DNA of 64,000 bases from Rhodospirillales bacterium. Its GTDB lineage: Bacteria; Pseudomonadota; Alphaproteobacteria; MPNO01; UBA2964. The stretch spans positions 20,958 through 84,957 of the forward strand of contig JAYOEY010000002.1 in the NCBI GenBank assembly GCA_038116945.1. Direction: 5' to 3'. The notes under the pieces were generated by a model, which was not told where the DNA came from, made no database searches, and worked only from the letters and a program-made list of their open reading frames with translations. The position numbers and the translations under genes were made by a program. Below, in pieces: positions 1,328 to 56,672 of the stretch; position 1 is the first letter of the stretch, and the number at the start of each line of letters is the position of its first letter.

Positions 1328-1762
1328 TTGACGGACTCTGGCACCAATCACGAAATTTTCTTACGCGAAGAAACCGTAAAGACATCAACCGATCGCAGTT
1401 TCGGAATCGTGTTTACGGTCGTTTTCGCGATCATTGGCCTGTGGCCGCTGATGGGCGGACACGGGGTGAGGCTGTGGGCGATCGCGGTCGCCGGGGTCCT
1501 GCTGGTCGTCGCCCTGGTCAGGCCGGTCTGGCTGGCGCCGGCAAACCGGCTCTGGACGAAATTCGGGCTGCTGCTGCACCACGTTACGAATCCCCTCATC
1601 ATGGGGCTGGTATTCTTCGTTGTGGTAACGCCGATGGCGTTGGGAATGCGTTTTCTGGGAAAAGATCCGCTTTGCCGCAAAATCGACAAGTCGGCGAAGA
1701 GCTACTGGATTGACCGCGAACCGCCCGGGCCCAAGCCCGAAACCATGATCAATCAGTTTTGA
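1328..1762 (+). CDS. SxtJ-like small membrane protein (TTG start)
   Basis: 144 aa with two hydrophobic segments (FGIVFTVVFAIIGLWPL, LIMGLVFFVVVTP). The family is usually found beside a carbamoyltransferase and DUF5989. No in-frame ATG lies before the first transmembrane segment, so TTG at 1328 is the likely start. Confidence 0.6.
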   Translation: MTDSGTNHEIFLREETVKTSTDRSFGIVFTVVFAIIGLWPLMGGHGVRLWAIAVAGVLLVVALVRPVWLAPANRLWTKFGLLLHHVTNPLIMGLVFFVVVTPMALGMRFLGKDPLCRKIDKSAKSYWIDREPPGPKPETMINQF

Positions 1763-1769
1763 GTTTCTG

Positions 1770-1919
1770 ATGGGATTTCTCAGGGAATTCTGGAGTTTCA
1801 TGCGGGCGCGCAAGAAATTCTGGCTGCTGCCGATTTTCATTGTGCTGTTGCTGTTCGGCGGGCTCGTGATCCTGACCCAGGGATCCGCAGTGGCGCCGTT
1901 CATCTACACGATATTCTGA
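1770..1919 (+). CDS. DUF5989-like 49-aa membrane micro-protein (absent from ORF track, below its length cut-off)
   Basis: ATG 1770 to TGA 1917-1919, translated by hand as MGFLREFWSFMRARKKFWLLPIFIVLLLFGGLVILTQGSAVAPFIYTIF. It sits 7 nt after the SxtJ-like stop and 15 nt before the carbamoyltransferase. The KKFWLLPI...GSAVAPFIYT pattern matches the conserved SxtJ/carbamoyltransferase companion. Confidence 0.7.
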   Translation: MGFLREFWSFMRARKKFWLLPIFIVLLLFGGLVILTQGSAVAPFIYTIF

Positions 1920-1934
1920 TCTGCTGTCGTGGCG

Positions 1935-3770
1935 ATGCGGATCCTGGGCATATCGGCTTTTTACCATGACAGCGCGGCGGCGCTTGTTGAAGACGGCAAG
2001 GTCGTGGCGGCAGCCCAGGAAGAACGGTTCTCGAGGAAAAAACAGGATTCCGGTTTTCCGCAGGCAGCGATCGACTATTGCCTGGACGAAGTCGGCGCCA
2101 GTCTTTCCGACATCGATTTTGTCGCGTTCTACGACAAGCCTTTCCTGAAGTTCGAAAGACTGCTCGAAACCTACGTCGCCTATGCGCCTCGCGGGTTCGA
2201 ATCGTTCCGCATGGCGATGCCGGTCTGGCTCAAGGAAAAGCTGTTCCAGAAGACGCTGCTGAAGGACAGGCTGCGCAACGAAGCGCCCGATTTCAACTGG
2301 GACAACCGGCTGCTGTTTGCGGAGCACCATCAGAGCCATGCCGCCAGCGCGTTCTATCCGTCGCCTTTCGAAAACGCGGCGATCCTGACCATGGATGGCG
2401 TCGGCGAATGGACGACGACGTCGCTTGGAATCGGCAGCGGCAACAAGGTGGAAATGACGCGGGAGATTCATTTCCCCCATTCTCTCGGCCTGCTCTATTC
2501 CGCGTTTACCTATTACACCGGCTTCCGCGTCAATTCGGGCGAGTACAAGGTGATGGGGCTGGCCCCGTACGGCGAGCCCAGATACACGAAGACGATTCTC
2601 GACAATGTCATCGACGTGAAGGAGGATGGCTCTTTCCGGCTCGACCTTTCCTATTTCGATTTCTGTACCGGTTTGCGCATGACGAACGACAGGTTTCACG
2701 ACCTGTTCGGGGCTCCGCCGCGCGATCCCGAGAGCCTGCTGACCCAGCGCGACATGGACCTCGCCGCGTCGATTCAGGAAGTGACGGAAGAAGTCGTGCT
2801 TCGCCTCGGCCGGTCGATCGCGAAAGAGACGCAGGAAAAGAACCTGTGTCTCGCGGGCGGCGTCGCGCTCAACTGCGTCGCCAACGGCAAGCTGCTGCGC
2901 GACAACTGCTTCGAGAATATCTGGATCCAGCCGGCGGCCGGCGATGCCGGCGGCGCGCTCGGCGCAGCCCTGGTGGGCTATCATTATTTTCAGGATCAGC
3001 CGCGCAAGCTGAATGGCGCGATGGACGGCATGAAAGGCGCCTATCTGGGACCTGAATTCCGGCAGACCGACATCGAGGAGCGTCTTGCGGCGGCGGGGGC
3101 GGTGTTCAGCACGCTGTCGGACGACGATACGATCCGGCGCACCGCGGCCGCCCTGGCCGACGGCAAGGCGGTCGGCTGGTTCCAGGGACGGATGGAGTTC
3201 GGGCCGAGGGCTCTCGGCGGACGCTCGATCCTCGGCGATCCGCGCGACCCGGCCATGCAGAAGACGCTGAATTTGCGGGTCAAATACAGGGAATCGTTCC
3301 GTCCGTTCGCGCCGTCGGTCCTGGGAGAACACGTGTCGGACTGGTTCGAACTCGACAGGGAAAGCCCGTACATGCTGCTTGTCGCCAATGTCAAAGAGGA
3401 ACACCGGCGCGAGATGACGGCGGAAGAGCAGGCGCTGTTCGGAATCGACAAGCTCAACGTACCGCGCTCGTCGATCCCGGCGATCACCCATGTCGACTAT
3501 TCGGCGCGGGTCCAGACCGTACACGCGGAGACCAATCCCCGCTATCACGCGCTGATTTCCGCATTCAGGGACCTGACCGGCTGCCCGGTTCTGGTCAACA
3601 CAAGCTTCAACGTCCGGGGCGAGCCCATCGTGTGTACGCCCGAAGACGCGTTCCGCTGCTTCATGGGCAGCGGCATCGAGGTTCTGGTCGTCGGAAACTG
3701 CTATCTGGCGAAAGAAGATCAGGATCCCGCGCTTGCGGAAGACTACAAAGACAAGTTTGAACTGGATTGA
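1935..3770 (+). CDS. NodU/CmcH-family O-carbamoyltransferase
   Basis: 612 aa beginning MRILGISAFYHDSAAALVEDGKVVAAAQEERFSRKK (Kae1/HypF-like N-domain), with a C-terminal carbamoyltransferase domain. The ATG at 1935 is preferred over the GTG at 1929 used by the track. Confidence 0.85.
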   Translation: MRILGISAFYHDSAAALVEDGKVVAAAQEERFSRKKQDSGFPQAAIDYCLDEVGASLSDIDFVAFYDKPFLKFERLLETYVAYAPRGFESFRMAMPVWLKEKLFQKTLLKDRLRNEAPDFNWDNRLLFAEHHQSHAASAFYPSPFENAAILTMDGVGEWTTTSLGIGSGNKVEMTREIHFPHSLGLLYSAFTYYTGFRVNSGEYKVMGLAPYGEPRYTKTILDNVIDVKEDGSFRLDLSYFDFCTGLRMTNDRFHDLFGAPPRDPESLLTQRDMDLAASIQEVTEEVVLRLGRSIAKETQEKNLCLAGGVALNCVANGKLLRDNCFENIWIQPAAGDAGGALGAALVGYHYFQDQPRKLNGAMDGMKGAYLGPEFRQTDIEERLAAAGAVFSTLSDDDTIRRTAAALADGKAVGWFQGRMEFGPRALGGRSILGDPRDPAMQKTLNLRVKYRESFRPFAPSVLGEHVSDWFELDRESPYMLLVANVKEEHRREMTAEEQALFGIDKLNVPRSSIPAITHVDYSARVQTVHAETNPRYHALISAFRDLTGCPVLVNTSFNVRGEPIVCTPEDAFRCFMGSGIEVLVVGNCYLAKEDQDPALAEDYKDKFELD

Positions 3771-6141: not shown

Positions 6142-7425
6142 TCAGAGCTGCCAGCGCCGGAAATTGGCGGGGAACGAACGCAGCCGCCACATGCCCTTAA
6201 CGTCTGCGATCAGCCCGTCGCCGGCCAGCAGGGCGTTGAAGCGGTCATCCGGAAATTCGACGTAATCGGTATGCGGCACGGCGCCGACAATGCAGTCGTA
6301 CCCTGTCGCGTCGTCGAGCGAAGGCAGCAGGTCGATATTGAAAATCTGCTTCGCTTCTTCCGGATCGGCGAAGGCATCGTGAACGTCGACCGCGAACCCC
6401 CTGTCGGTCAGGCCCCTGACAATATCGATAACATGGGAGTTCCGGAGGTCGGGGACGTTTTCCTTGAAGGTCAGGCCGAGCATCAGGATGCGGCCGTTTC
6501 CGTTCCTGCCCAGGGAAGCCAGTTCCGACGCGATGCAATCCGCGACGTAGCCGCCCATTGCGTCGTTAATCCGGCGTCCGGCCAGGATGATCTCCGGGTG
6601 ATGGCCCATCGCGGTCGCGGCGTGAGCGAGGTAGAACGGATCGACGCCGATACAGTGTCCACCGACCAGACCAGGCGTGAATTTCAGGAAGTTCCACTTG
6701 GTGCCCGCGGCCTCGAGTACGTCGTAAATCGAGATCCCCATCTTCTGGAAGATCGTCGCGACCTCGTTGATGAAGGCGATGTTGATGTCGCGCTGGGCGT
6801 TTTCGATGACCTTGGCGGCTTCGGCGGTGCGGATGTCGCGCGCCTTGAACACGCCGCCCGAGGTCAGCTTGCCGTACATTTCGCACAGAGTGTCCGCGAC
6901 AGCGTCGTTCTGTCCCGCGACGACCTTTGTGATGCGATCGACCGTATGCTCGCGGTCGCCCGGATTGATTCGCTCGGGCGAGTAGCCGAGGAAGAAATCG
7001 ACGCCGCACGTCATCCCGGAGGCCGCCTCGAGCTCTGGGCCGGCGATATCCTCGGTGACGCCGGGATAGACAGTGGATTCGTAAACGACGATCGCGCCTT
7101 TCCGGATGACTCCGCCAACCAGCCGGCTGGCTCCCCGGACGGCAGTCAGGTCAGGTTCGTTGGCGCTGTCGACCGGGGTCGGGACGGTGACGATATAGAT
7201 GTCCGATCCCCGGATGTCGTCCGCCCGATCGGTGAACGTCATGGTCGTCGACGTCAGCTGGTCCGGGCCGATTTCGCGGGTCCGGTCATGGCCGGTCCGA
7301 AGCTCGTCGATCCGCCGGCGATCGATATCGAGTCCCACCACCGGAAAATGCCGGGAGAGATGGATCGCCAGAGGCAGGCCGACATATCCCAGGCCGATCA
7401 CCGCGATCTTCTCGATTTTCGCCAT
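6142..7425 (-). CDS. UDP-N-acetyl-D-glucosamine (or galactosamine) 6-dehydrogenase, TviB/WbpO family
   Basis: MAKIEKIAVIGLGYVGLPLA Rossmann start, VVYESTVYPG, GYSPERINPGD, GGHCIGVDP (catalytic Cys) and ILGLTFKEN motifs. A GGAG ribosome-binding site lies 6 nt upstream on the minus strand. Confidence 0.8.
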   Translation of the reverse strand: MAKIEKIAVIGLGYVGLPLAIHLSRHFPVVGLDIDRRRIDELRTGHDRTREIGPDQLTSTTMTFTDRADDIRGSDIYIVTVPTPVDSANEPDLTAVRGASRLVGGVIRKGAIVVYESTVYPGVTEDIAGPELEAASGMTCGVDFFLGYSPERINPGDREHTVDRITKVVAGQNDAVADTLCEMYGKLTSGGVFKARDIRTAEAAKVIENAQRDINIAFINEVATIFQKMGISIYDVLEAAGTKWNFLKFTPGLVGGHCIGVDPFYLAHAATAMGHHPEIILAGRRINDAMGGYVADCIASELASLGRNGNGRILMLGLTFKENVPDLRNSHVIDIVRGLTDRGFAVDVHDAFADPEEAKQIFNIDLLPSLDDATGYDCIVGAVPHTDYVEFPDDRFNALLAGDGLIADVKGMWRLRSFPANFRRWQL

Positions 7426-7673
7426 TTACCACTCCGTTCGTCCGGCTGGATCGTCTACTCCGGCGATCCGATACGTGTCAATCGAGGCTTGCGACCGCCG
7501 GACAGTAGCGATGAAGGTTAACCGAATCGTTGACGCGCGCGGCCGGAAAATTGCGCCGCGTCGCCAAAAAGCCGAAACCGGTCGTCGCCCGCGCAACAAA
7601 GTTGCAATATGCGTTCAGCCTGCATAGTTTGCCGGCCACTGATTTCGCCCGATTCCACACGGAGAGCCATGCC

Positions 7674-9341
7674 ATGCCGGCATCGCGGACGCCCATACAG
7701 AATGCCGACAACGCGTCAGTGCCCGCGCGCAGGAGTTCCGCGCTGAAGGCGCTGCTGACCTCGCCGCAGACCGAATTCGTCATGGAGGCTCATGACGGGC
7801 TGTCGGCGAAAATCGTCGAAGAAGCGGGGTTCAGGGGAATCTGGGCGTCGGGCCTTACGATGTCGGCGGCGCTTGGCGTTCGAGACAGCAACGAGGCGTC
7901 CTGGACGCAGGTTCTGGAAGTCCTTGAGTTCATGGCGGACGCGACATCGATCCCGATTCTGGTGGACGGCGATACGGGGTACGGCAATTTCAACAATGTG
8001 CGCCGGGTGGTCCGCAAGCTGGGCCAGCGGGGCATCGCCGGGATCTGCATCGAGGACAAGCTGTTTCCCAAGACCAACTCTTTTATCGGCGACGGGCAAC
8101 CGCTTGCCGATATCGACGAGTTCTGCGGCAAGATCAAGGCCGGCAAGGACAGCCAGGTCGACGACGATTTCTGCCTGGTTGCCCGCATCGAGGCGCTGAT
8201 TTCCGGACGCGGCATGGTGGAAGCGCTGAAGCGCGCCAAGGCCTATCACGAGGCCGGAGCCGATGCGCTGCTAATCCATTCCAAACAGCGCGACCCCGAG
8301 GAAATTCTCACCTTCCTCGCCGAATGGGGAAATCGCTGCCCGGTGGTGATCGTGCCGACAACCTATTACGACACGCCGACAGACGCGTGGCGCGATGCCG
8401 GCGTGTCGCTGGTCATCTGGGCCAACCATAATCTGCGCGCCTCCATCTCGGCGATGCGGGAGGTGTCGTCGCGGATCGCCCGCGAGCAGTCGCTGGCGGG
8501 GATCGAAAATTCGGTCGCCACCGTGCGGGAGATTTTTCAGATCGCCGGCAACGACGAGCTCGCGGAGGCCGAACGAAAATACCTGCCGGCGACCCCCGAC
8601 GCACCGCATGCGATCGTGCTGGCGGCTTCGCGCGGAGTCGAACTCGGGGCGCTGACCGAGGACCGTCCCAAATGCATGGTCGAAATTCGCGGGCAGCCGC
8701 TGCTGCGGCGGCTGGTCGATACTTTCCACGGCGGCGGGGTGCATGACATCACGGTGGTTCGCGGCTATCGCAAGGAAATGGTGAACCTTCCCTCGATCCG
8801 CGCCATCGACAACGATGCTTACGACAGCACCGGCGAGCTGGCGACGCTGGCCTGCGCGGCCGACCGGCTCGACGACGAAGTGCTGATCGCGTACGGGGAT
8901 ATCCTGTTTCGCCAGCACATTCTCGATCAGATCCGGAACGCGGATGGCGACATCGTGCTGGCGGTGGATGCGCTTTGGCGCGAACGCGATTCCGATCCCG
9001 GATCGCGCCATCGGGATCTGGTGCAGTGCAGCGCGCCGTTCCAGGTCGATTATCTTCAGGATGCTCCGGTATCGCTTCTCCGGATCGCGCCCGATATCGC
9101 CGAAAGCGACATCAACGGCGAGTGGATCGGACTGGCGCTGGCGCGCGAAAAGGGCACGGCCTCGATTCGGGCAGCAATCGCTACGATGCGCGCGGACGGA
9201 TCGCTTGAACGCGCCGGATTGCCCGGACTGTTTTCCCGGCTGATGGCGGATGGCGTCGAAATCGGCGTCGTCTATGTTGCCGGGCAGTGGCTTGATGTCG
9301 ACGATGCCGCCGACCTGAAGGCCGCGGACAGCTTTCTGTAA
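7674..9341 (+). CDS. ppm: phosphoenolpyruvate phosphomutase fused to a C-terminal LicC/PntC-like (phosphonate) cytidylyltransferase domain
   Basis: The N-domain matches PEP mutase motif for motif ([70 protein letters not shown]). The C-domain has nucleotidyltransferase motifs ([48 protein letters not shown]). The ATG at 7674 follows a GGAGAG ribosome-binding site. The track start at 7530 would add 48 aa with no homologous counterpart. Confidence 0.85.
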
Positions 9342-9348
9342 CCCGGCG

Positions 9349-10794
9349 TCAGATCAGCCCGCGCCGGCCCATATAGGCGTATATCCTGTCGGCGAGATCT
9401 TCGGGCGCATGTCCGACCGTATGCAGCACGATTTCAGCATTGTCGGGCGCCTCGTAAGGCGAATCGACACCCGTAAAGTTGCGGATTTCGCCCGCCCGGG
9501 CCCGGCGGTACAGGCCTTTCGGATCCCGCCGCTCGCATTCCTCGAGCGGCGTGTCGACGAAAATCTCGATGAATTCGTCGGGATCCACCATGTTGCGAAC
9601 CATTTCGCGTTCGCTCCTGAACGGCGAAATCAGCGCCGCCAGGACGATGGTGCCCGAATCGACGAACAGCCTCGCGACCTCGCCGACGCGTCGAATGTTC
9701 TCGACCCGGTCCTCCGGCAGGAACCCGAGGTCGCGGTTTAGCCCGAGACGCAGGTTGTCCCCGTCGAGCAGATAGGTCTGACAGCCTTCGGCATTCAGCC
9801 GCTTTTCAAGGGCGTTCGCAACGGTGGATTTGCCCGACCCGGACAGGCCCGTCAGCCAGATGAGCGCCGGCCTGTGGCCCGTGCGAGCCGAACGTGCCGC
9901 TTTGTCGACCGCCGTTTCATGCCAGGAAACGGTGCTCGATCGCCAGAGTGCGAACTCCAGCGAGCCGCCGCCGGCGGTCTCGCCCGTCGCCCGGTCGACA
10001 AGCAAGAAGCTGCCGTCCGGAGAATTTTCGGATTTCCGGTCCAGCGCAATTGCCGCGTCGAAAGCGATGTTAACATAGGCGAATTCGTATCGTCGCAGGT
10101 CCCGGGCGGCGAGCCTCTCGAGCGAGTCCGGATCGAAACGGTGTTTGATCTCCGTTACGTGAGCGGTCAGCAGCCGGTCGCCGATCCTTGCCGAATAGAG
10201 GCGCTCCGGGTAGAGCGGTTCGTCGGACAGCCAGAAAACATTCGCGGCGAAATGATCCGCGGGGCCCGTCGCATCCGCGTCCGACGATCCCGCAAAGGGC
10301 TGCCTGACCCGGCAGTTTTCCAGCCAGCGCATCACGGACGGTTCTTCCGGCTGCGACCCCGTTACCGAGCTCAAGAGCGGCCCGACGGTTACGCCGGACA
10401 GGCCGAGAGGCGACAGAATGCTCCGCGCCTGTGCCGACAGGTCGGCGAGAACGGCCGGATCTTCCGCATCGATCGCGAGAAAGATGGAGGGCACTCCCAT
10501 CCTGGCGAACAGGTATGCGAGCGACCGGACCGACGTCGACAGGCGGCGTTCCGAATCCGCGATAATGACCGCGGCGTCCGCGACAGATGCAGCAATCGCG
10601 TTCGCGCCCGGAGATTGCTCCGGGTCCCACGCCTCATCGACGCCGTACAGGCGGTCGCCTGCCGACAACCGGCCGTCAGCGACGGGCAACCCGACAGCGG
10701 GGACGGTTTCGCCGTTGCCGTTCCACCTGCGGATAAGAAGACGCAGGCGCGCGTCGCCGTCTTTCGGTTCGTCGATCATGAAACGTTGCGGCAT
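9349..10794 (-). CDS. cysC: adenylylsulfate (APS) kinase CysC fused to a degenerate CysN-like N-terminal region lacking the GTPase P-loop
   Basis: The C-terminal 180 aa are canonical APS kinase ([68 protein letters not shown]). The N-terminal 300 aa align to the late G-domain and domains II/III of CysN ([13 protein letters not shown]...IFLAIDAED; [17 protein letters not shown]), but there is no GxxxxGK[ST] P-loop and NKMD is replaced by IDAED. Confidence 0.8.
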
Positions 10795-10863
10795 CCGGAC
10801 AGAAACTCGGCACTCATGACAGCGGGGCTTTCCCGTTCGACCCAGACCGGCCTGCGCGACAGT

Positions 10864-12588
10864 CTATTGCAGCTTGTCCGTCGAGGGGGCGCAGGGGCTG
10901 ACACCGCCGTTCGCGGTTCCTCTTCTTCGCGCCAGCGCATCCTTCAGCCGGTGTTCGAATACGGTCGATGCCTCGCGCTGATACAGAACGTTCGTCAACG
11001 TCCGCCAGATTCGTTTCGGGTAGAAGAGATAGCTGATGAGGTAGTTGGTCACCATGAAACCCAAACGATAGATCGCAAGTTCCCGGCGGCCGATCGTCTC
11101 GTTGTGCGTGAGCGGCTTGAGCGATGTAAATTCGCTGTTGAGCGACGTCAGCCCGAGGAAATAGCGGTCGCTCAGCTCAATCACGCCGCTTTCCTGAAGG
11201 TGCGCGAAAATTTCCGTGCCGGGATAGGCGGAATAGATGTTGATCGATGCCTCGTCGACGCCCCTTGCGGCCATCTTGAGCCCGAACCAGACGGTCCGGT
11301 ACACATCGGCGCGCGTTTCGCCCGGAAAACCGATGATCAGGTTGGTCCGAAGCGTCAACCCCAGCCTTCGCGCCGCCATCACCGATTCCGTCAGGCGATC
11401 GAGCGACACCTTTTTCTTGATCAGCTCCAGCGTTCTGGGCGAGCCGCTTTCCGGCGCGTAACACAGATAGGTGCAGCCGGTCTTTTTCAGCAGCCCAAGC
11501 GTCTCCGCATCCAGCGCCTCCGAGCGGGTGCCCGACGGCAGCGACCATTTTACGTTGATGCCTTCGTCCAGCATCCGCTGGCACAGTTCGACGGTCCATT
11601 GTTTCTTGGTGATCGCCGTCAGGTCGTAGAGCTGTATCGACGTGATGTCGTATTCGCGGATGTAATGTTTCATCTCGGCGATGACGTCGTCGATGTCGCG
11701 CAGCAGATATCGCGTCGTCCACATCTGCGCGCTCGAGCAGAAGGTGCACTGAAACGGGCAGCCGCGCGAAATCATCATCGGCATGTCCCGTTCGGTCTGG
11801 ATGCCGAAAGACTTGCCGGCAGACCAGAATTTTTCCAGATAGCCGTTCTGCCAGTGGGGCCACGGAATGTTGTCGACATCCCGGATCCGGGTCAGGCCGA
11901 CGCTTTCCAGAAACTGTCCGTCGGGTCCGATCGTACAGACGCTGGCCAGGTTCGCCGGATCGCTTCCCTCGCGAACGGCCTCGACGATTTCGTAGAAGAC
12001 ATGCTCGCCCTCGCCCAGCGCGATGGCATCCAGCGCCGGGCAGTCGCGCAGCGAATATTCCGGCAGCGCGGTTGCGTGTTCGCCTCCCGCGACCAGAAAA
12101 GCGTCGGGAAAACGCGCGCGAACGGCTTCGATCAGCCGACGGTGTATCGGCCACTCGCCGGAAAACATGGTCGAAAACCCGATGACCCGGGCGTTTCCGG
12201 GGATCATCGCGACGGTCTGTTCGATGGTGATGCCCTGACACTGGTATCCGTCGATTCCCTCCGGGTGCCAGATGACGTTGAGCCCTTCGCCGACCGCATC
12301 GACGATGACCGGTTCATAGCCGCGTTTCTTCAGATAGCCGGCAATGAAAGCCAGCCCGATCGCGGGCGTCGCTTCGTTATTGAAAGCCGCGTAGGTGGAA
12401 AGGATCGGGCCCCGGACCAGCGCCACGCCGAATTCCGCTGCGCCGGCGTCGGCCGATACAGCGCCGACATCTCTCATGATCGGGCGCGGATTGCCGAACT
12501 TGCCGGGCGCGGGCGCGTTCAGCGAGCCCGGATCGGAACCCGGATCGGAAGTCGTGTCGATGTTCGCGGAGCCTGACATTGCAACCAT
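10864..12588 (-). CDS. cobalamin-dependent (class B-like) radical SAM enzyme number 1 (possible start at Met38, nt 12477)
   Basis: N-terminal B12-binding-like region (AIGLAFIAGYLKKRGYEPVIVDA) followed by a radical SAM core with ISRGCPFQCTFCSS (C-x3-C-x2-C). Confidence 0.8.
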   Translation of the reverse strand: MVAMSGSANIDTTSDPGSDPGSLNAPAPGKFGNPRPIMRDVGAVSADAGAAEFGVALVRGPILSTYAAFNNEATPAIGLAFIAGYLKKRGYEPVIVDAVGEGLNVIWHPEGIDGYQCQGITIEQTVAMIPGNARVIGFSTMFSGEWPIHRRLIEAVRARFPDAFLVAGGEHATALPEYSLRDCPALDAIALGEGEHVFYEIVEAVREGSDPANLASVCTIGPDGQFLESVGLTRIRDVDNIPWPHWQNGYLEKFWSAGKSFGIQTERDMPMMISRGCPFQCTFCSSAQMWTTRYLLRDIDDVIAEMKHYIREYDITSIQLYDLTAITKKQWTVELCQRMLDEGINVKWSLPSGTRSEALDAETLGLLKKTGCTYLCYAPESGSPRTLELIKKKVSLDRLTESVMAARRLGLTLRTNLIIGFPGETRADVYRTVWFGLKMAARGVDEASINIYSAYPGTEIFAHLQESGVIELSDRYFLGLTSLNSEFTSLKPLTHNETIGRRELAIYRLGFMVTNYLISYLFYPKRIWRTLTNVLYQREASTVFEHRLKDALARRRGTANGGVSPCAPSTDKLQ

Positions 12589-12767
12589 GATATGTATGGG
12601 GTTCGGATTCAGCAGTAAAGGAATTTTGAATCAAGGGTTTCCGGCTATCCTTGCCGTTTCCGGCGTTCAGCCCTCTATCTGCCGGTGTCCCCATGCCGTT
12701 CCGGGAGATCCCGACGCAGCCGGGCGGTCGCGGGAACGACATAAAATAAGGAAAATAAAGAATATTC

Positions 12768-12832
12768 TTGACGTTCATGGCGCGAACGCTTTAGTGTTCG
12801 TGCCGTGAACAAGATTGTTCAGAACGTGAACG
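12768..12832. promoter_or_regulatory. operator cluster 1: three tandem GTTC-N7-GAAC palindromes, overlapped by a TTGACG -35-like hexamer
   Basis: CGTTCATGGCGCGAACG (12772-12788), TGTTCGTGCCGTGAACA (12795-12811), TGTTCAGAACGTGAACG (12816-12832). Centre-to-centre spacings are 23 and 21 bp. TTGACG at 12768-12773. An AT-rich tract (ATAAAATAAGGAAAATAAAGAATATTC) lies immediately upstream. Confidence 0.6.
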
Positions 12833-12876
12833 TTAGCAATTCGCTTCTTTCGAACGATCGTCAAGCTGCAACGCCC

Positions 12877-13509
12877 ATGACAACGAATACTGTCTCGGAA
12901 GATGAAGCGAAAATAACGCTGGGTCTTCTCAACGCCATCGAGGCGAACAGCAAGGTGACGCAGCGAACCGTCGCCCACGACCTCGGTATCGCGCTCGGGC
13001 TGGCCAACGCTTACCTGAAACGATGCGTTCGCAAGGGGCTCATTAAGGTCCAGCAGGTTCCCGCAAACCGGTACGCCTATTATCTCACGCCGCAGGGTTT
13101 TGCGGAAAAGAGCCGGCTTACGGCCGAATATCTCACCATTTCGCTCAATTTTTTCCGCCGCGCGCGAAACGAATGCGCGGAAGTGTTTCGTCAGTGCGAA
13201 CAGCTTGGTTGGCGGCGGGTCGTTCTCGCCGGTACGGGCGACCTGACGGAAATTGCAACGCTGTGCGCGAATCATGCAGAGATCGAGCTGGTCGGTATCT
13301 ACGATCCCGCCGGGACAGCGGCGGATTTTTCCGGTCTGCGGGTGTCCGACAATCTGGCGGCGCTGGAACCCTTCGACGGCGTGGTCATTACCGCGTTCCG
13401 CAATCCGCAGGAAAGTTTCGATGCGCTGGTCCGGATGATTCCGGCCGCGCGCATCGCCGCGCCGGCGCTCCTCGGAATCTCGCGCGAACCGCCGCAGCTG
13501 ATGGAATAG
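12877..13509 (+). CDS. winged helix-turn-helix transcriptional regulator with a C-terminal Rossmann-like domain (Rex-like architecture)
   Basis: N-terminal wHTH (VTQRTVAHDLGIALGLANAYLKRCVRKGLIKV) and a C-terminal alpha/beta region with a glycine-rich loop (RRVVLAGTGDLTEIA). The track start at 12805 is GTG and overlaps the operator boxes, so the ATG at 12877 is preferred. Confidence 0.6.
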   Translation: MTTNTVSEDEAKITLGLLNAIEANSKVTQRTVAHDLGIALGLANAYLKRCVRKGLIKVQQVPANRYAYYLTPQGFAEKSRLTAEYLTISLNFFRRARNECAEVFRQCEQLGWRRVVLAGTGDLTEIATLCANHAEIELVGIYDPAGTAADFSGLRVSDNLAALEPFDGVVITAFRNPQESFDALVRMIPAARIAAPALLGISREPPQLME

Positions 13510-13512
13510 ACG

Positions 13513-14049
13513 ATGAACGCGTTTCTCGCAGATACGATGGACGGAAGCACCTGCTGGTACGTGGTGCACACCCACGCGCGGGCGGAAGAAACCGCGCAGC
13601 GCAATCTGATCCAGCAGGGTTTCCAGGCGTTTCTGCCGCAATACATGAAAAAGCGCCGGCATGCGCGGCGGACCGACTGGGTAAGCGCGCCGCTGTTTCC
13701 GCGTTACCTGTTCGTCGCGATCGATGTCGCCCGGGCGCGCTGGCGGTCGATATCGTCGACCATCGGCGTTCAGCATCTGATCTGCTGCGGGGAAATGCCG
13801 GTGGCGGTTCCTGAGGCGGTGATCGCGGAGATTCGCGCGCGCATGGATGAAACCGGAATGGTTCCGGTCAGACAGAAAGTACCGTTCCGCAAGGGCGAAA
13901 CGGTACTCGTCACCGGCGGGCCGCTTGCCGACCAGGTCGGGCTGTTCGACTGCGTCAGCGACGAGGAAAGGGTATTCCTTCTGCTCGACATTCTCGGGCG
14001 GCAGGTAAAGGTCAGGGTGCCGCTCGACGCCGTCACGCAATTCGCGTAA
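13513..14049 (+). CDS. NusG paralog (RfaH/UpxY/LoaP-like specialised transcription antiterminator)
   Basis: 178 aa with an NGN domain (WYVVHTHARAEETAQRNLIQQGFQAFLPQY...PLFPRYLFVAID) and a KOW-like C-terminus (GETVLVTGGPLADQVGLF). It is not in a secE/rplK context and its ATG lies 4 nt after the regulator's stop codon. Confidence 0.75.
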   Translation: MNAFLADTMDGSTCWYVVHTHARAEETAQRNLIQQGFQAFLPQYMKKRRHARRTDWVSAPLFPRYLFVAIDVARARWRSISSTIGVQHLICCGEMPVAVPEAVIAEIRARMDETGMVPVRQKVPFRKGETVLVTGGPLADQVGLFDCVSDEERVFLLLDILGRQVKVRVPLDAVTQFA

Positions 14050-14052
14050 CGC

Positions 14053-14065
14053 GGCGCGCGGCGCC
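14053..14065 (+). other. short GC hairpin GGCGC-GCG-GCGCC directly after the NusG-paralog stop (possible pause/attenuator; no U-tract)
   Basis: Perfect 5-bp inverted repeat with a 3-nt loop. Confidence 0.2.
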
Positions 14066-14107
14066 AGAGGCCAGCGCCCACGGGTGAGACATCGGTTTCA
14101 CCCGAAC

Positions 14108-14119
14108 GGTGGTAGCGTG
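14108..14119 (+). promoter_or_regulatory. ops-like element GGTGGTAGCGTG (11/12 match to the E. coli RfaH ops GGCGGTAGCGTG) in the leader of the plus-strand Pse operon
   Basis: On the coding strand, 19 nt upstream of the 14138 ATG and 59 nt downstream of the NusG-paralog stop codon. Confidence 0.5.
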
Positions 14120-14137
14120 GCCAAAATCACCCAAGAC

Positions 14138-14800
14138 ATGCCGCTTGCCGACAACGATAGCTGGCCGCTCAACGAAGACGGCGTGTGGATCGACCTCCGC
14201 GGGAAACCTCGGGAAAGGCCCGGTCCGGTCCTGTTTCTCGATCGCGACGGCGTCATCATTTTCGATGCCGTCTATGTCGGCGATCCCGCGGATGTGGCAA
14301 TTCTGCCGGATGCCGCCCGCATGATCGCAACGGCCAACCGGATGGAAATACCGGTCGCCGTCGTTACGAACCAGTCCGGGATCGACCGGGGATATTTCGG
14401 CTGGTCCGATTTCGATGGCGTGATGAAGCGGATTGCCGACGAGCTGGCGTCCAGGGGCGCCCATCTCGATGCGGTGGCCGCCTGTCCCTTTCATCCCGAT
14501 TTCACGCCGGGCTATGGCGCCATGCACGACGGGTGGCGCAAGCCCGGCGCGATGATGATCCTGACCCTGGCAAAAGAACTCAACGCGGATCCGTCGTCGT
14601 CCTGGATGGTCGGCGATCAGGAAAGCGACATCCTTGCGGCGGCGGCGGCGGGGCTGGGCCATGCGCTTCTGTTGAGTGACGCCGGCGGCGACAGCCGCGC
14701 CGCGCCGGTCGGGCCGTCCGGAACGAAGATCGTGACGGGCAATCTGGCGGGTTTCCTGGACAGCGGGACGGGCTTGTTCGCCAGCGCGAAAACGCGTTAG
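14138..14800 (+). CDS. HAD-family phosphatase, D,D-heptose 1,7-bisphosphate phosphatase (GmhB)/histidinol-phosphatase-like
   Basis: LFLDRDGVII (HAD motif I), VVTNQSG, GWRKPGAMMIL and VGDQESD motifs. The ATG at 14138 is preferred over the GTG at 14084, which would bury the ops-like element in coding sequence. Confidence 0.7.
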   Translation: MPLADNDSWPLNEDGVWIDLRGKPRERPGPVLFLDRDGVIIFDAVYVGDPADVAILPDAARMIATANRMEIPVAVVTNQSGIDRGYFGWSDFDGVMKRIADELASRGAHLDAVAACPFHPDFTPGYGAMHDGWRKPGAMMILTLAKELNADPSSSWMVGDQESDILAAAAAGLGHALLLSDAGGDSRAAPVGPSGTKIVTGNLAGFLDSGTGLFASAKTR

Positions 14801-18528: not shown

Positions 18529-19707
18529 ATGCCCATGACGCAGCGACGTTATATTCCTTACGGCCGCCAGGACATCGACGATCACGACAGGGCCGCCGTC
18601 GACCGAATCCTGCGCGCTGATTTCATCACGCAGGGACCGGCTATCGACGCGTTTGAAGCAGACCTCGCCGGATTGTGCGAATCCCGCTATAGCGTTGCCG
18701 TCAGCAGCGGCACTGCCGCGCTGCACCTCGCCTATCTCGCGCTTGGCGTCGGGCCCGGCGACACCGTCTGGACCACGCCCAACAGTTTTGTCGCGACCGC
18801 GAATGCCGCCCTCCTCTGCGGGGCGAAGGTCGACTTCGTCGATATCGATCCCGACACCCGATGCATGAGCCCCCAGGCGCTGGAGCGCAAGCTGGCCGCG
18901 AGCTCCGCGACAGCGCTGCCCAAGGCGGTCGTACCGGTTCATTTCGGCGGCCATTGCTGCGATATGCCCGCCATCGCCGGGCTCGCCGCAGCGTATGGAT
19001 TCCGGGTCGTCGAGGACGGCGCGCATTCGCTGGGGGCGGCATACAGGGACGCCGACGGCGCCCGGCACATGTTCGGTTCCTGCGCGCACGCCGACCTGGC
19101 GATCGCAAGCTTCCATCCGGTGAAGATAATCACCACCGGAGAGGGCGGTGCGGTCATGACCGGCGATGCCGAACTCGATCGTCGCCTGCGGCTGCTGCGG
19201 AGCCACGGCGTGACCCGCGATGCCGGGCTGATGGAAAACCCCTCAGAGGGCGACTGGTATTACGAGCAGGTTGCGCTCGGCCTCAACTACCGCATCACGG
19301 ATCTGCAATGCGCGCTGGGCAGCAGCCAGCTCGCGCGGCTGCCCGGTTTTCTCGAAAGACGGCGTCACCTGGCGGCCCGGTACGATGAGCTGCTTTCCGG
19401 TCTGCCGGTTCGCCGGCCGACAGTCATGCCGGGACACGAACCGGCCTGGCATCTCTACGCGATAGAGGTCGACGCCGACCGACGCCGATCTGCGTTCGAT
19501 GCCATGCGCGCCGCGGGCATCGGCGTTAACGTGCATTACATCCCGATCCATCTGCAGCCCCATTACCGTCGACTTCAGTTCGCGCCCGGACAGTTCCCGG
19601 TTGCGGAACGGTATTACCGGGGGGCGCTGTCCCTGCCGCTGTTTCCCGGTCTTGAAACTGACGAGCAGGATCATGTGGTATCCGTGCTGGCCGAGGCGCT
19701 GTCGTGA
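18529..19707 (+). CDS. pseC: DegT/DnrJ/EryC1 aminotransferase, PseC-like (UDP-4-amino-4,6-dideoxy-N-acetyl-beta-L-altrosamine transaminase)
   Basis: YIPYGRQDIDDHDRAAV start typical of PseC/ArnB, SSGTAALHLA, SFHPVKIITTGEGG (PLP lysine) and LRSHGV. Confidence 0.7.
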   Translation: MPMTQRRYIPYGRQDIDDHDRAAVDRILRADFITQGPAIDAFEADLAGLCESRYSVAVSSGTAALHLAYLALGVGPGDTVWTTPNSFVATANAALLCGAKVDFVDIDPDTRCMSPQALERKLAASSATALPKAVVPVHFGGHCCDMPAIAGLAAAYGFRVVEDGAHSLGAAYRDADGARHMFGSCAHADLAIASFHPVKIITTGEGGAVMTGDAELDRRLRLLRSHGVTRDAGLMENPSEGDWYYEQVALGLNYRITDLQCALGSSQLARLPGFLERRRHLAARYDELLSGLPVRRPTVMPGHEPAWHLYAIEVDADRRRSAFDAMRAAGIGVNVHYIPIHLQPHYRRLQFAPGQFPVAERYYRGALSLPLFPGLETDEQDHVVSVLAEALS

Positions 19708-20609
19708 GGATTGTGCTGGGGTCCGCGCAGTTCGGGTCCGACTACGGCATATCGAACAAGGTCGGCCGGCTTTCCGGGGACGCGGTGAAATCGCTTCTGA
19801 CTCGCGCCCGCAGTCATGGTATCGACACGATCGACACCGCGTGCCTTTACGGCGACGCTGAAAGCGTCCTTGGCGAATCGCTCGGGGACCCGGGGTGGAA
19901 AATCGTCACCAAGACGCCAAAATTTACCGGCCTGACGGGCGCGCGGGCGGTCGAAGGCCTGCGCGCTGCTTTCGATGCCTCGCTGGAACGTCTTCGCCGG
20001 GACCGGCTGCAAGGTCTGCTGGCACATGATGCCGACGATCTGCTGGGTCCCCATGGACCGCGAATCTGGCGTGCAATGCAGGATCTGAGGGCCGATGGCC
20101 GGGTCGGGATGATCGGGGCTTCGGTCTATACCGGCGGCCAAATCGACGGCCTGCTGGCGAGATACGATCTCGATCTCATCCAGCTGCCCCTTAACATGCT
20201 CGACCGCCGCCTTGTGGATGGAGGCCAGCTGGAAAAGCTATTGGCTGCCGGCGTGACGGTTCATGCGCGATCGGTATTTCTGCAGGGGCTGCTTCTGATG
20301 CCGCCCGAAGGGTTGCCGCCGCGATTTGCGGATATCGCGCCGCGTCTCCGGGTCCTGCGCGAACGGCTGTCCTGCATGGGGTTGTCGCCGGTCGAGGGCG
20401 CCCTCGCAGCGGTCAGGGCAGGACCTGAAATCGACGCTATCGTCGTCGGCGTCACCAGCACCTGCGAGCTGGACGAAATCGTGAGCGCGGCGGAGAGGAT
20501 TGCCGGCCTCGAGACGGATTTGCCGTTTGAAGAATTTGCGGTTGCGGACGCGACCGTTCTCGATCCACAACATTGGCCGGATCGGCGCCCGCAGGGCGTC
20601 GTGGGCTAG
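19704..20609 (+). CDS. aldo/keto reductase (GTG start overlapping pseC stop)
   Basis: VLGSAQFGSDYG, DTIDTACLYGDAE. Confidence 0.7.
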   Translation: MRIVLGSAQFGSDYGISNKVGRLSGDAVKSLLTRARSHGIDTIDTACLYGDAESVLGESLGDPGWKIVTKTPKFTGLTGARAVEGLRAAFDASLERLRRDRLQGLLAHDADDLLGPHGPRIWRAMQDLRADGRVGMIGASVYTGGQIDGLLARYDLDLIQLPLNMLDRRLVDGGQLEKLLAAGVTVHARSVFLQGLLLMPPEGLPPRFADIAPRLRVLRERLSCMGLSPVEGALAAVRAGPEIDAIVVGVTSTCELDEIVSAAERIAGLETDLPFEEFAVADATVLDPQHWPDRRPQGVVG

Positions 20610-21830: not shown

Positions 21831-21863
21831 CGGACGGCGCGACTGCCAACCGGCTCCCGGCGG

Positions 21864-22481
21864 ATGATCGGCATTCTCGACATCGGGATGGGCAATCTCG
21901 GCTCGGTATGGAACGCGACTTACGAGTCGGGGTTCGATCCCGAGATCGTCATCGATCCGGACGATCTCGACCAGATCGACCACCTCATCCTGCCCGGGGT
22001 CGGCCATTTCGCGACCGCGATGGAAAAACTCTGCGAAATGGGCATGGTCTCGCCGCTCAGGAGCTATGTCGAAAGCGGCCGTCCGCTGCTCGGTCTCTGC
22101 GTCGGCATGCAGGTGCTGGCCACCGAGGGAACGGAAGGCGCCAGGACGCCAGGGCTCGATATCATCGCCGGGACGGTCGACCGACTGCCGGTCAATCCGC
22201 CCTTCCGGGTACCGCATATCGGCTGGAACGCGGTCAGCGCCGTCCGGGATCATCCCGTCCTGGAGCGCATCAAACCTGAACGGGACTTTTACTTCGTCCA
22301 TTCCTACGCGTTCCGTCCGGTGGACGAGGCGAACATCGTGGCAAGAACCGAATACGGCGCGCCGTTTGCATCGATCGTCGGCCGGGCGAACGTACTCGGG
22401 TGCCAGTTCCACCCCGAGAAGAGTCAGGCCAACGGGTTGCGGATCCTGGAAAACTTCTGCCGGTGGGACGGGGTATGCTGA
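21864..22481 (+). CDS. HisH-like glutamine amidotransferase (WbuY-like), copy 1
   Basis: IGILDIGMGNLGSV, LLGLCVGMQVL (catalytic Cys), CQFHPEKS. Confidence 0.85.
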   Translation: MIGILDIGMGNLGSVWNATYESGFDPEIVIDPDDLDQIDHLILPGVGHFATAMEKLCEMGMVSPLRSYVESGRPLLGLCVGMQVLATEGTEGARTPGLDIIAGTVDRLPVNPPFRVPHIGWNAVSAVRDHPVLERIKPERDFYFVHSYAFRPVDEANIVARTEYGAPFASIVGRANVLGCQFHPEKSQANGLRILENFCRWDGVC

Positions 22482-30170: not shown

Positions 30171-30174
30171 GGCA

Positions 30175-36497: not shown

Positions 36498-36637
36498 GTT
36501 TGATTTCGGCGGTTTCTGCGGAGCAATTTCTGTTAAATGAAGCGGCCAGCGAAGTCCACCGTTCTGACCGCCCGTCCAGCCGCGCCGCGGAAGCCCGACC
36601 GGGAAAACGGCCCTGCCCTGGTCCAGCCGGCCAGGCG

Positions 36638-39338: not shown

Positions 39339-39464
39339 GTCGTTCCTGATTTTCGGAAACCGGTCTCTCGGTAAAACTAATTTATCCAGACGGCCGTTGC
39401 CACGGCAAGAATCGCTTTGCCCCAGGCGGCGCCGGTTGAGCGCCGTGACAGATGACGAAACGTC

Positions 39465-54396: not shown

Positions 54397-54416
54397 TACG
54401 GCCGGACCTGATCGAC

Positions 54417-56638: not shown

Positions 56639-56672
56639 CTCCGTCCCGCAACGGACCCCGGCTCTGCCCGGC

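Follow-up and report, generated by a model that had tools for sequence, protein, structure and literature searches.

A PEP mutase-nucleotidyltransferase fusion gene at the edge of a Rhodospirillales glycan locus, apart from its usual ppd partner

The reading we prefer for this locus, with a probability of roughly 0.65, is that it carries a working aepX-type enzyme that has been relocated, that the phosphonopyruvate decarboxylase (Ppd) and transaminase it needs are supplied in trans, and that the genes downstream are not a Fom3-like module. The window, by which we mean the entire 64 kb stretch analyzed (1-64000), contains the fusion gene alone at one edge of a polysaccharide region.

The fusion protein and its closest counterparts

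By its sequence, the protein encoded at 7674-9341 is a genuine PEP mutase (Ppm) fused to a LicC/PntC-type nucleotidyltransferase, and both halves of the identification made in the initial annotation hold. It matches the Pfam families PEP_mutase (210.7 bits) and NTP_transf_3 (48.1 bits, cut-off 27), and passes the NCBIfam equivalog for PEP mutase, TIGR02320 (391.7, cut-off 319.55), while scoring below cut-off on the models for phosphonopyruvate hydrolase, carboxyPEP mutase and methylisocitrate lyase, the last being the type of enzyme named beforehand as the alternative for this domain. The N-terminal domain also aligns with a PEP mutase of known structure and contains the motif EDKXXXXXNS by which Ppm is specifically defined (Rice 2019; Yu 2013; Table 1). 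The nucleotidyltransferase domain matches LicC (1jyk, E 5e-9) and Tde-PntC (6pd1, E 5e-5) in the PDB, over its nucleotide-binding N-terminal half only, and includes the signature LAASRGxxLGxLTxDRPKCM, conserved throughout the fusion family. All of the best 120 of 8000 candidate homologues share the architecture of Ppm plus PF12804, and one member of a public collection (P0001, 555 aa) is identical to the window protein. Because the C-terminal domain is LicC/PntC-like, formation of a C-P bond combined with CMP activation for a surface glycan would be the expected logic (Rice 2019), as the initial annotation had also supposed.

Table 1. Features of the fusion gene and its surroundings (window coordinates)
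Feature	Position	Strand	Basis or remarks
Divergent intergenic region between the fusion gene and the TviB-like UDP-sugar dehydrogenase gene (6142-7425, -)	7426..7673	.	ORF map
Bifunctional Ppm-PntC gene (aepX type)	7674..9341	+	555 aa; PF13714 + PF12804
PEP mutase domain, residues 17-306	7722..8591	+	End-to-end alignment with Mytilus edulis PEP mutase 1m1b, E 3e-125
Ppm-specific motif (10 residues), residues 127-136	8052..8081	+	Regular-expression match
LicC/PntC-type nucleotidyltransferase domain, residues ~312-555	8607..9338	+	PF12804 48.1 bits; PDB matches
APS kinase (CysC) domain, intact, stop codon included	9349..9939	-	TIGR00455, NF003013
Decayed CysN part: GTPase-domain remnant, domain II deleted, domain III kept	9940..10794	-	Alignment A1
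Cobalamin-dependent radical SAM number 1	10864..12588	-	574 aa; PF02310 + PF04055
HTH_24 regulator and NusG-like protein, divergent from radical SAM number 1	12805..14049	+	Pfam

The closest known counterparts are the aepX-type Ppm-PntC proteins of 'CDP-OH' phosphonolipid clusters (the Roseomonas marmotae p1318-3 aepX-aepY genes and loci in Burkholderia and Mycetohabitans), which have the same domain order and length (~550 aa), are 53-60% identical over 94-97% of the protein, and share with the window fusion the residues conserved family-wide. Their genes are translationally coupled to ppd and accompanied by genes for AEP transaminase (AEPT), CDP-alcohol phosphatidyltransferases, MMPL and hopanoid synthesis, whereas none of them accompanies the window gene, which is isolated at the margin of a glycan locus. 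The free or AEPT-fused relatives of the C-terminal domain are more distant: PntC of Treponema denticola (Tde1415) and Atopobium rimae and LicC of S. pneumoniae belong to the same PF12804 fold family and suggest the same role, production of a CMP-conjugate donor for surface decoration (Rice 2019), but similarity to 1jyk and 6pd1 is low and limited to ~105-120 residues, the window signature is AASRGVEL where theirs is AAGLGTRL or AGGLGSRL, and the window domain is fused to Ppm.

Linkage to ppd among related loci

Among 79 non-redundant related loci whose sequence extends 1.2 kb or more past the fusion gene, ppd lies directly 3' of it in 65, at a median gap of -1 bp (range -20 to +54). The ppd-linked loci are phosphonolipid clusters with AEPT, CDP-alcohol phosphatidyltransferases and MMPL, hopanoid genes adjoining; that of Roseomonas marmotae is annotated aepX-aepY in RefSeq. 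The window, by contrast with these ppd-linked relatives, belongs to a monophyletic ppd-less subclade of ~10 species (with L001, L003, L004, L005, L007-L011, L058 and L090), across which the position of the fusion is unchanged and follows the order RsmB-SxtJ-DUF5989-carbamoyltransferase-Rpe-heparinase-like-UDP-sugar dehydrogenase-fusion. In this subclade the fusion gene has moved out of the ppm-pntC/ppd operon into a polysaccharide locus; in L003 there is nothing between the acetyl-CoA synthetase gene and DUF1674, where L006 carries fusion and ppd. The gene is under strong purifying selection (dN/dS against clade relatives of 0.03-0.06 for the Ppm domain and 0.11-0.18 for the nucleotidyltransferase domain, dS being near-saturated) and appears to be functional. 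Only two fixed differences separate the ppd-less from the ppd-linked enzymes at conserved columns, both conservative (W239/F and T391/S); the chemistry is therefore likely to be unchanged and Ppd still needed.

As first annotated, the window has no ppd and no class-V AEP transaminase. Pfam scans of its called genes gave no match to TPP_enzyme or Aminotran_5, and a search of all six-frame ORFs of at least 40 aa in the 64 kb, with a Ppd HMM built from 64 sequences (positive control E 3e-210) and an AEPT query, returned best E-values of 1.4 and 1.9. Throughout the ppd-less subclade, neither gene was found within 10 kb of the fusion at E<0.01. A full-length Ppd (P0355; 639 bits against the Ppd HMM) nevertheless appears to be encoded on the same chromosome as the fusion of subclade member L005, more than 10 kb away from it: the only contig for P0355 measures 4,149,033 bp (NCBI and ENA), the same figure from the same sources as the chromosome carrying P0050/L005. 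Judging from this one relative, the gene for the decarboxylase serving the window's fusion most likely lies in another part of the genome. The initial annotation had left the committed step either encoded elsewhere or non-canonical; the former is favored and the latter disfavored. Scattered pathway genes are normal in the fusion family, AEPT being nearby in only 25 of 76 comparison loci (a set unfiltered for redundancy or downstream length).

Genes flanking the fusion

Upstream, the fusion gene is divergent from that of the dehydrogenase (386 bits against the NCBIfam NDP-sugar dehydrogenase model), a pair also present in L001, L003, L004, L005, L007 and L032. Downstream, it converges on a 481-aa ORF at 9349-10794 with a stop-to-stop gap of 7 bp (9342-9348), and a 69-bp gap separates that ORF from radical SAM number 1, upstream of it on the same strand, an arrangement that agrees with the one first described. 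The HTH_24 and NusG-like pair beyond forms the head of the variable glycan region, and the same boundary occurs in L001, L004, L005, L089 and L090. Neither a sulfotransferase nor a LicD-type, CDP-alcohol or other recognizable phosphonate transferase was found among the called genes of the window in Pfam and NCBIfam scans.

The 481-aa product, initially described as an APS-kinase fusion, does contain an APS kinase; the remainder is better described as the relic of a CysNC protein that has lost its GTPase motifs and domain II. In Pfam it retains APS_kinase (227.6 bits) and GTP-eEF1A_C. In the CysN part the P-loop segment is missing, EAWDPEQ stands in place of DAPGHEQ and IDAED in place of NKMD; domain II is reduced to 1 residue, against 81 in intact orthologues; and the G-domain shows 31% identity and domain III 51%, where intact orthologues are 71% and 83% identical among themselves. 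The protein fails the models for CysN (TIGR02034, 77 bits against a cut-off of 336) and CysNC (NF004035, 378 against 715). The kinase domain passes TIGR00455 (252 bits, cut-off 139) and NF003013 (283, cut-off 163), is 76-79% identical to the kinase domains of intact CysNC, and retains the P-loop and LDGDN motifs (E 3.6e-65 against Arabidopsis APS kinase 3uie). Orthologues of the gene in syntenic position are the full-length CysNC genes of cysD-cysNC operons in L001 and L003, from which it differs in its lack of GTPase motifs, domain II and cysD; it is best read as a decaying CysNC inherited by synteny with its kinase intact. Separately, two non-homologous sulfate-activation systems adjoin the fusion in different clade members, which plain synteny does not fully explain.

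Radical SAM number 1 occupies the slot held by cysD in L001 and L003. It belongs to class B and carries a B12 domain and a CPFQCTFC (CxxxCxxC) cluster motif at residue 277 (11737-11760). Its best curated families are the Sden_1168 'P-methyltransferase' family (162, cut-off 575), HpnJ (131, cut-off 578) and PhpK (78, cut-off 600), all far under cut-off, and radical SAM number 2 of the window scores similarly on all three. In a published similarity network HpnJ and SD1168 share the broad class-B methylase main cluster with Fom3, so that sequence places radical SAM number 1 only within this cluster and points neither way on a phosphonate substrate.

Competing readings and proposed role

The initial annotation had likened the fusion and radical SAM number 1 to the fosfomycin pair Fom1/Fom3, with the latter methylating the C or P of the fusion's CMP-phosphonate to yield a methylated phosphonate on the glycan. 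The two systems do resemble each other in placing a cytidylyltransferase-fused Ppm near a cobalamin radical SAM, and in L090 the radical SAM number 1 orthologue converges directly with the fusion gene; Campylobacter ppm-ppd neighborhoods flanked by radical SAM and adenylylsulfate kinase genes (GCF 385) have also been reported (Li & Horsman 2022). The analogy nonetheless finds no support in family or position. The cytidylyltransferase of Fom1 is PF01467 and N-terminal (Rice 2019), that of the window PF12804 and C-terminal; the window lacks Ppd and the alcohol dehydrogenase that would form HEP; and the product of its locus is a glycan rather than a small-molecule antibiotic. Fusion and radical SAM are not consistently neighbors: of the 10 clade loci whose sequence continues past the end of the fusion gene, 8 have no homologue of radical SAM number 1. 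Orthologues at 75-85% identity are seen only in the window clade; the radical SAM-CysNC pair of L089 has no ppm within 10 kb, and relatives at ~60% identity (Paramagnetospirillum and other taxa) sit in ppm-free glycan loci among glycosyltransferases, SAM methyltransferases, AsnB, MBOAT and NeuB. Comparative genomics thus lends no support to a Fom3-like role, which we consider unlikely, and the downstream genes probably have no place in a fosfomycin-like pathway. To an equal degree we doubt a route independent of Ppd, in which an unlinked or unrecognized enzyme reduces, transaminates or directly cytidylylates phosphonopyruvate in the subclade. The missing Ppd within 10 kb in ~10 species-level genomes despite selection on the fusion, the empty site in L003, and the existence of a 'pre-Ppd other' neighborhood class (Li & Horsman 2022) speak for it; against it stand P0355 on the apparent L005 chromosome, the near-identity of conserved columns with ppd-linked enzymes, the lack of a conserved VlpB-, PalB- or FrbC-like gene beside the fusion in the clade loci compared, and the window's aminotransferases, which are DegT sugar aminotransferases and one GSA-aminomutase-like enzyme.

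A further reading sees in the kinase a step of PAPS-like activation, phosphorylating the 3'-OH of the CMP-phosphonate to give a 3'-phospho-CMP-phosphonate donor, by analogy with Campylobacter Cj1415 and Cj1416, which produce CDP-phosphoramidate 3'-phosphate. The APS-kinase domain would correspond to Cj1415 and the PF12804 domain to Cj1416, which has been aligned with PntCs (Rice 2019). The kinase has stayed whole despite the decay of the CysN half and the loss of cysD, 5 clade loci but no ppd-linked locus have an APS-kinase gene beside the fusion (one weak match lies ~5 kb from the fusion in L060, ppd-less and outside the window clade), and GCF 385 likewise unites Ppm, APS kinase and a radical SAM, the last comparable by description of enzyme class. 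Those Campylobacter loci keep ppd, however, and the window kinase is a canonical CysC domain that passes equivalog cut-offs, has plant and human APS kinases among its matches (E 1e-50 to 1e-65), and closely resembles CysC domains in complete cysD-cysNC operons. With complete sulfate-activation sets neighboring the fusion in relatives, PAPS synthesis is the simple reading, and 3'-phosphorylation of the CMP-phosphonate is very improbable. Least credible of all is that a phosphonate operon broke up and left the fusion gene behind without function: its operon partners are lost and it stands between two opposite-strand genes, but its frame is intact, every motif is present, its position is the same in ~10 species, and the selection analysis (dN/dS 0.03-0.18) contradicts decay.

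We hypothesize instead, in keeping with a relocated and working aepX-type enzyme, that the N-terminal domain converts PEP to phosphonopyruvate, that the thermodynamically required decarboxylase and then a transaminase would be supplied from elsewhere in the genome, and that the C-terminal domain would yield a CMP-phosphonate donor, CMP-2-aminoethylphosphonate being the likeliest, with which a cell-surface molecule, the presumed acceptor, would be decorated. In a subclade of what appear to be marine Rhodospirillales-type bacteria, the gene would have left the usual ppm-pntC/ppd phosphonolipid operon and would now lie by itself on the border of a hypervariable locus for polysaccharide and nonulosonic acid. 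The adjacent CysNC gene, its partner cysD lost and its GTPase half being lost, may keep a canonical APS kinase for PAPS supply, and radical SAM number 1, one of the glycan island's four class-B radical SAM enzymes, may have taken the place of cysD. The locus is thus an ordinary one with a modest twist, its fusion belonging to the most widespread type of phosphonate-forming enzyme known (33% of 1485 Ppm are fused to PF12804, the most frequent Ppm architecture; Rice 2019).

Identity and absence of partners of the Ppm-PntC fusion

The fusion gene, its CysNC-derived neighbour and radical SAM 1 are three ORFs that lie where the initial annotation had placed them (Table), the first two with convergent stops 7 bp apart. 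The fusion comprises, in Pfam order, PEP_mutase (210.7 bits) and NTP_transf_3 (PF12804, 48.1 bits, cut-off 27). Its N-terminal domain is a true PEP mutase (Ppm), as had been proposed, scoring 391.7 against TIGR02320 (cut-off 319.55) and falling below the NCBIfam cut-offs for phosphonopyruvate hydrolase (257.5 vs 374.4) and carboxyPEP mutase (92.7 vs 420); for methylisocitrate lyase, the alternative originally raised for this domain, the score is likewise under the cut-off (140.8 vs 354.4). The Ppm catalytic motif EDKXXXXXNS is found at residues 127-136, and the structurally solved Mytilus PEP mutase aligns with the domain over its full length (E 3e-125). This domain is predicted to convert PEP to phosphonopyruvate. 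The assignment of the C-terminal domain as LicC/PntC-like also stands: its nucleotide-binding half is similar to LicC of S. pneumoniae (1jyk) and to the PntC-AEPT protein of T. denticola (6pd1), the LicC/PntC nucleotide-binding motif aligns and the PK lysine is retained, while the Gly-x-Gly-Thr-Arg signature has become Ser-Arg-Gly-Val-Glu across the entire fusion family. Sequence alignments to 6pd1 and 1jyk end near residue 120 of the domain, and of the amine-binding acidic positions of Tde-PntC tied to AEP preference, Glu104 and Glu196, the second lies outside them. According to Rice et al. (2019), 59.5% of 1485 motif-bearing Ppm proteins are fused, most commonly to PF12804 (33%). A search of 5.8 billion proteins gave 8000 matches, the best 120 of which all have the same two domains (63-100% identity, 519-574 aa), and cultured relatives at 53-60% identity (Roseomonas, Burkholderia, Mycetohabitans) carry the aepX annotation. 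The fusion is another member of a well-described family.

Neither phosphonopyruvate decarboxylase (Ppd) nor a class-V AEP transaminase (AEPT) had been recognised in the 64 kb, and this absence was borne out. Over the whole 64 kb, none of the gene calls matched a ThDP enzyme or a class-V aminotransferase in Pfam or NCBIfam; in a stricter test, a Ppd HMM from 64 sequences and the AEPT of a related locus were run against every six-frame ORF of at least 40 aa, with best E-values of 1.4 (Ppd) and 1.9 (AEPT), against 3e-210 for the positive control. For comparison, 80 species-representative loci and several metagenomic loci were fetched. Of the 79 non-redundant loci whose sequence extends at least 1.2 kb past the fusion, 65 carry ppd directly behind it, its start offset from the end of the fusion by -20 to +54 bp (median -1 bp). 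These ppd-linked loci are phosphonolipid clusters beside hopanoid genes, encoding a PhyH oxygenase, a second PntC, the fusion, Ppd and often AEPT, as well as CDP-alcohol phosphatidyltransferases, an LPG-synthase-like membrane protein, MMPL and MlaC; one is annotated by RefSeq in Roseomonas marmotae, and they correspond to the 'CDP-OH' group of Li & Horsman. The remaining 14 loci are ppd-less, and ten of these, the window among them, group as a single clade by neighbour-joining, with the shared gene order RsmB, SxtJ, DUF5989, carbamoyltransferase, Rpe, heparinase II/III-like, TviB-like UDP-sugar dehydrogenase (minus strand), fusion. A sensitive HMM search of the clade loci detected neither Ppd nor AEPT within 10 kb. 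The phosphonolipid partners (PhyH, second PntC, CDP-alcohol transferases, LPG-synthase-TM and a sulfatase-family protein) were also sought in the window, with only generic nucleotidyltransferase and SDR similarity found; the window's PhyH protein is not related to the phosphonate-linked ones.

The four ppd-less loci outside the clade (L056, L060, L077, L079) are sporadic and have no alternative branch enzyme in common, their neighbours being transporters, peptidases, PhyH and a sulfatase-family protein. L060 has a co-directional run of ABC exporter, fusion, PhyH-family oxygenase and sulfatase/alkaline-phosphatase-family protein, with a weak APS-kinase-like match about 5 kb beyond it; this member of the alkaline-phosphatase superfamily may be an EptA/LtaS-type phosphonate transferase. 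L056, labelled as a Nitrosotalea sp. MAG, and L040, from a Candidatus Rokuibacteriota MAG, carry alphaproteobacterial-type fusions at 64-67% identity, and the archaeal-labelled contig has 67% G+C; both cases probably reflect mis-binning rather than gene transfer.

A probable decarboxylase in trans

A stand-alone fusion gene might be a non-functional remnant, a possibility dismissed on dN/dS, which against the nearest relatives amounts to 0.03-0.06 in the Ppm and 0.11-0.18 in the transferase domain (dS 0.7-1.5). When 12 ppd-less sequences were compared with 67 ppd-linked ones, only two of the columns at least 90% conserved in both groups differed between them, both conservatively (W239/F and T391/S). 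Judged from its sequence, the stand-alone gene appears functional and unchanged, and nothing suggests a new substrate or a new reaction. Given no sign of changed chemistry, the fusion should still need a phosphonopyruvate sink of the usual kind.

Most likely, the missing decarboxylase is encoded elsewhere in the genome and acts in trans, a reading that for the window's own genome is carried over from the clade member L005. A protein search with the Ppd of L006, a relative that keeps ppd, listed 120 matches, among them P0355 (379 aa, TPP_enzyme_N/C), which scores 639 bits against the Ppd HMM. Its sole contig is 4,149,033 bp at both NCBI and ENA, the same figures as for the complete chromosome that carries P0050, the ppd-less fusion of L005. 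We place both proteins on one chromosome by this identical seven-digit figure, for which coincidence is very unlikely; P0355 lies outside the 10 kb around the L005 fusion. AEPT is likewise missing from the fetched region in 51 of 76 comparison loci (a set not filtered for redundancy or downstream length), so that scattered pathway genes are normal in the fusion family, and Li & Horsman report two ppm neighbourhoods in 18% of ppm-bearing genomes.

The surface-glycan island

The window is a surface-glycan island of 62% G+C (Table). Its genes of pseudaminic-acid type are a PseB-like gene, the DegT aminotransferases, a PseG-PseH fusion, NeuB and a CMP-sugar synthetase. PseG (TIGR03590, 246 bits, above cut-off) and a C-terminal PseH-like GNAT are encoded as a single ORF, followed by a short formyltransferase-like ORF and then a PIG-L/LmbE deacetylase; a long ORF on the opposite strand (25808-27073) was considered and judged spurious. 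The island further has MBOAT and SGNH acyltransferases, an MptE/Maf-like protein and four cobalamin radical SAM genes. Two WbuX-type N-acetyl-sugar amidotransferases are present, the first adjoined by HisH- and HisF-like genes and the other with a second HisF-like gene 3.4 kb upstream, which suggests acetamidino groups on the island's sugars. Neither a phosphonate transferase nor a sulfotransferase was recognised in the window, and relaxed thresholds brought up no LicD-type transferase or sulfotransferase among window ORFs without a family match. Four ORFs of coding-type GC3 have no Pfam or NCBIfam match even when thresholds are relaxed; if the island does encode a phosphonate or sulfate transferase that went unrecognised, it must be one of these four.

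A triad of SxtJ, DUF5989 (49 aa) and carbamoyltransferase, also found in L001 and L003-L006, is a conserved left border of the variable glycan region in every relative examined, the ppd-keeping L006 included. An HTH_24 and NusG-like pair heads the variable region in the window and in L001, L004, L005, L089 and L090, and resembles the locus-specific antitermination pairs of polysaccharide loci.

Features of the window and of selected comparison loci
Locus	Feature	Position	Strand	Remark
Window	SxtJ, DUF5989, carbamoyltransferase	1328-3770	+	
Window	Ppm-PntC fusion	7674-9341	+	555 aa
Window	CysNC-derived gene	9349-10794	-	
Window	Radical SAM 1	10864-12588	-	best match Sden_1168/HpnJ
Window	HTH_24 and NusG-like pair	12805-14049	+	
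Window	ORF without family match	19674-20237	-	
Window	WbuX genes with HisH/HisF-like partners	20619-23239, 54297-55199, 58646-60043	+	
Window	PseG-PseH fusion	25817-27337	+	
Window	Formyltransferase-like ORF	27349-28029		
Window	PIG-L/LmbE deacetylase	28026-28718		
Window	NeuB	30049-31251		
Window	CMP-sugar synthetase	32491-33279		
Window	ORF without family match	34577-35704	-	
Window	PseB-like	35511-36884		
Window	PhyH	38505-39464		
Window	ORF without family match	39468-40571	-	
Window	Cobalamin radical SAM	42274-44619	-	best match BchE/HpnJ
Window	Cobalamin radical SAM	49347-51578	+	best match KedN5
Window	ORF without family match	56589-58703	+	
Window	Cobalamin radical SAM	61301-62866	+	best match BchE/HpnJ (weak)
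L001	PK-PUA_2-ATP-sulfurylase gene	7541-9721	-	
L004	PK-PUA_2-ATP-sulfurylase gene	12237-14429	-	
L060	Exporter, fusion, PhyH, sulfatase-family run	8140-14328	+	
L089	Full-length CysNC	11764-13623	+	no cysD

The CysNC-derived gene and radical SAM 1

The gene convergent with the fusion had been described as an APS-kinase fusion. An APS-kinase domain is indeed present and intact; its partner half is a decaying CysN from a CysNC protein. Pfam detects the kinase domain and a fragment of CysN domain III, and in L001, L002 and L003 the gene in this convergent position is a full-length CysNC (631 aa) preceded by cysD. Aligned to intact CysNC, the window protein is without the P-loop segment, has EAWDPEQ in place of DAPGHEQ and IDAED in place of NKMD, and has lost CysN domain II (1 residue vs 81 in intact orthologues). 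Its identity to intact CysNC is 76-79% (kinase), 51% (domain III) and 31% (G-domain remnant), compared with 85%, 83% and 71% among the intact orthologues themselves. The protein scores 378 against the CysNC model NF004035, under the cut-off of 715, but its kinase domain passes the apsK equivalog TIGR00455 (252.3, cut-off 138.7), retains the motifs GLSGSGKST and LLDGDNLR, and aligns with APS kinases from plants and humans (E 1e-50 to 1e-65; 3uie, E 3.6e-65). The gene is a CysNC without its former catalytic partner, retaining the kinase and shedding the GTPase half. In L089, a locus without ppm, a full-length CysNC lies downstream of the radical SAM 1 orthologue without cysD and already has a degenerate G3 motif (EDTPSPEQ vs DAPGHEQ), which looks like an intermediate state. 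Decay of CysN domain by domain after loss of cysD makes a tidy example of partial pseudogenisation inside a fusion protein.

Radical SAM 1 stands where cysD would be, on the same strand as the CysNC-derived gene and upstream of it, a pairing also seen in L089. With an N-terminal B12-binding domain (PF02310, 49.9 bits) and a CxxxCxxC radical SAM core (PF04055, 68.5 bits; CPFQCTFC at residue 277) it fits the class-B definition. Orthologues at 75-85% identity exist, that of L090 being directly convergent with a fusion gene. No homologue is present in L001-L005, L009-L011 or L058, and 8 of the 10 clade loci that have sequence downstream of the fusion lack the gene; L089, L092, L093 and L094 have the radical SAM gene and no ppm. 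More distant family members (about 60% identity), from Paramagnetospirillum magnetotacticum among other genomes, have no ppm beside them, their neighbours being glycosyltransferases, SAM methyltransferases, AsnB-type amidotransferases, MBOAT, NeuB and ABC exporters; this family context draws on five loci, and a metagenome scan for the gene gave one partial locus. Against curated models radical SAM 1 scores far under every cut-off (Sden_1168, NF038361, 162.3 vs 575; HpnJ, 131 vs 578; PhpK, TIGR04479, 78.1 vs 600), and a review groups Fom3, MoeK5 and HpnJ, with SD1168 (physiological substrate unknown) in the same main cluster of single-methylation enzymes. Radical SAM 1 is therefore probably one of the island's class-B methylases; on a phosphonate substrate these data speak neither for nor against. 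None of the four cobalamin radical SAMs of this pseudaminic-acid/Maf-type island reaches a curated cut-off, and the Paramagnetospirillum locus L092 likewise holds several such genes.

The pairing of the fusion with radical SAM 1 had been likened to Fom1 and Fom3 of fosfomycin biosynthesis. The analogy lacks comparative support: the cytidylyltransferase of Fom1 is an N-terminal PF01467 domain (Rice et al. 2019), that of the fusion a C-terminal PF12804 domain, and co-occurrence of the radical SAM with ppm is not kept across relatives. It is nonetheless tempting to speculate that in the ppd-less clade the fusion, the retained APS-kinase domain and radical SAM 1 form a new module that builds a methylated or PAPS-like 3'-phosphorylated CMP-phosphonate donor for a pseudaminic-acid-type glycan, in parallel with the chemistry of Fom1/Fom3 and Cj1416/Cj1415. 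Li & Horsman describe ppm-ppd loci of Campylobacter with a radical SAM and an APS kinase on their flanks, and in the Campylobacter Cj1415/Cj1416 precedent an APS-kinase homologue acts on a cytidine conjugate made by a PF12804-type enzyme. Such a module might explain why two unrelated sulfate-activation systems are repeatedly placed beside the fusion, which a decarboxylase in trans does not settle: cysD-cysNC and an APS kinase with a PK-PUA_2-ATP-sulfurylase protein are non-homologous, adjoin the fusion in different clade members (both in L001), and neither occurs in any ppd-linked locus. However, the orthologues of the window kinase domain are CysC domains within complete cysDNC operons, and we therefore rate a Cj1415-like action on a cytidine conjugate as low; the tailoring module as a whole we consider improbable, and a decarboxylase encoded elsewhere remains the preferred reading. 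In L001 and L004 the sulfurylase protein (726-730 aa; pyruvate-kinase PF00224, PUA_2 and ATP-sulfurylase domains) adjoins the Ppm-PntC gene, and a separate APS kinase comes next after it; the joining of a PEP-binding-type barrel to a sulfurylase, beside a PEP mutase, is architecturally unusual.

The novelty here is modest, a conserved ppd-less subclade moved into a glycan locus and the domain-wise decay of CysN; only in the improbable case that radical SAM and kinase act on a CMP-phosphonate would there be new biochemistry. Annotation pipelines would class the clade as 'pre-Ppd, possibly novel' though its decarboxylase is probably just elsewhere. If so, the fusion is a clear example of a phosphonate gene that left its operon and was yet maintained, and the window would add one more marine alphaproteobacterial lineage with phosphonate, probably on a surface glycan rather than on lipid.
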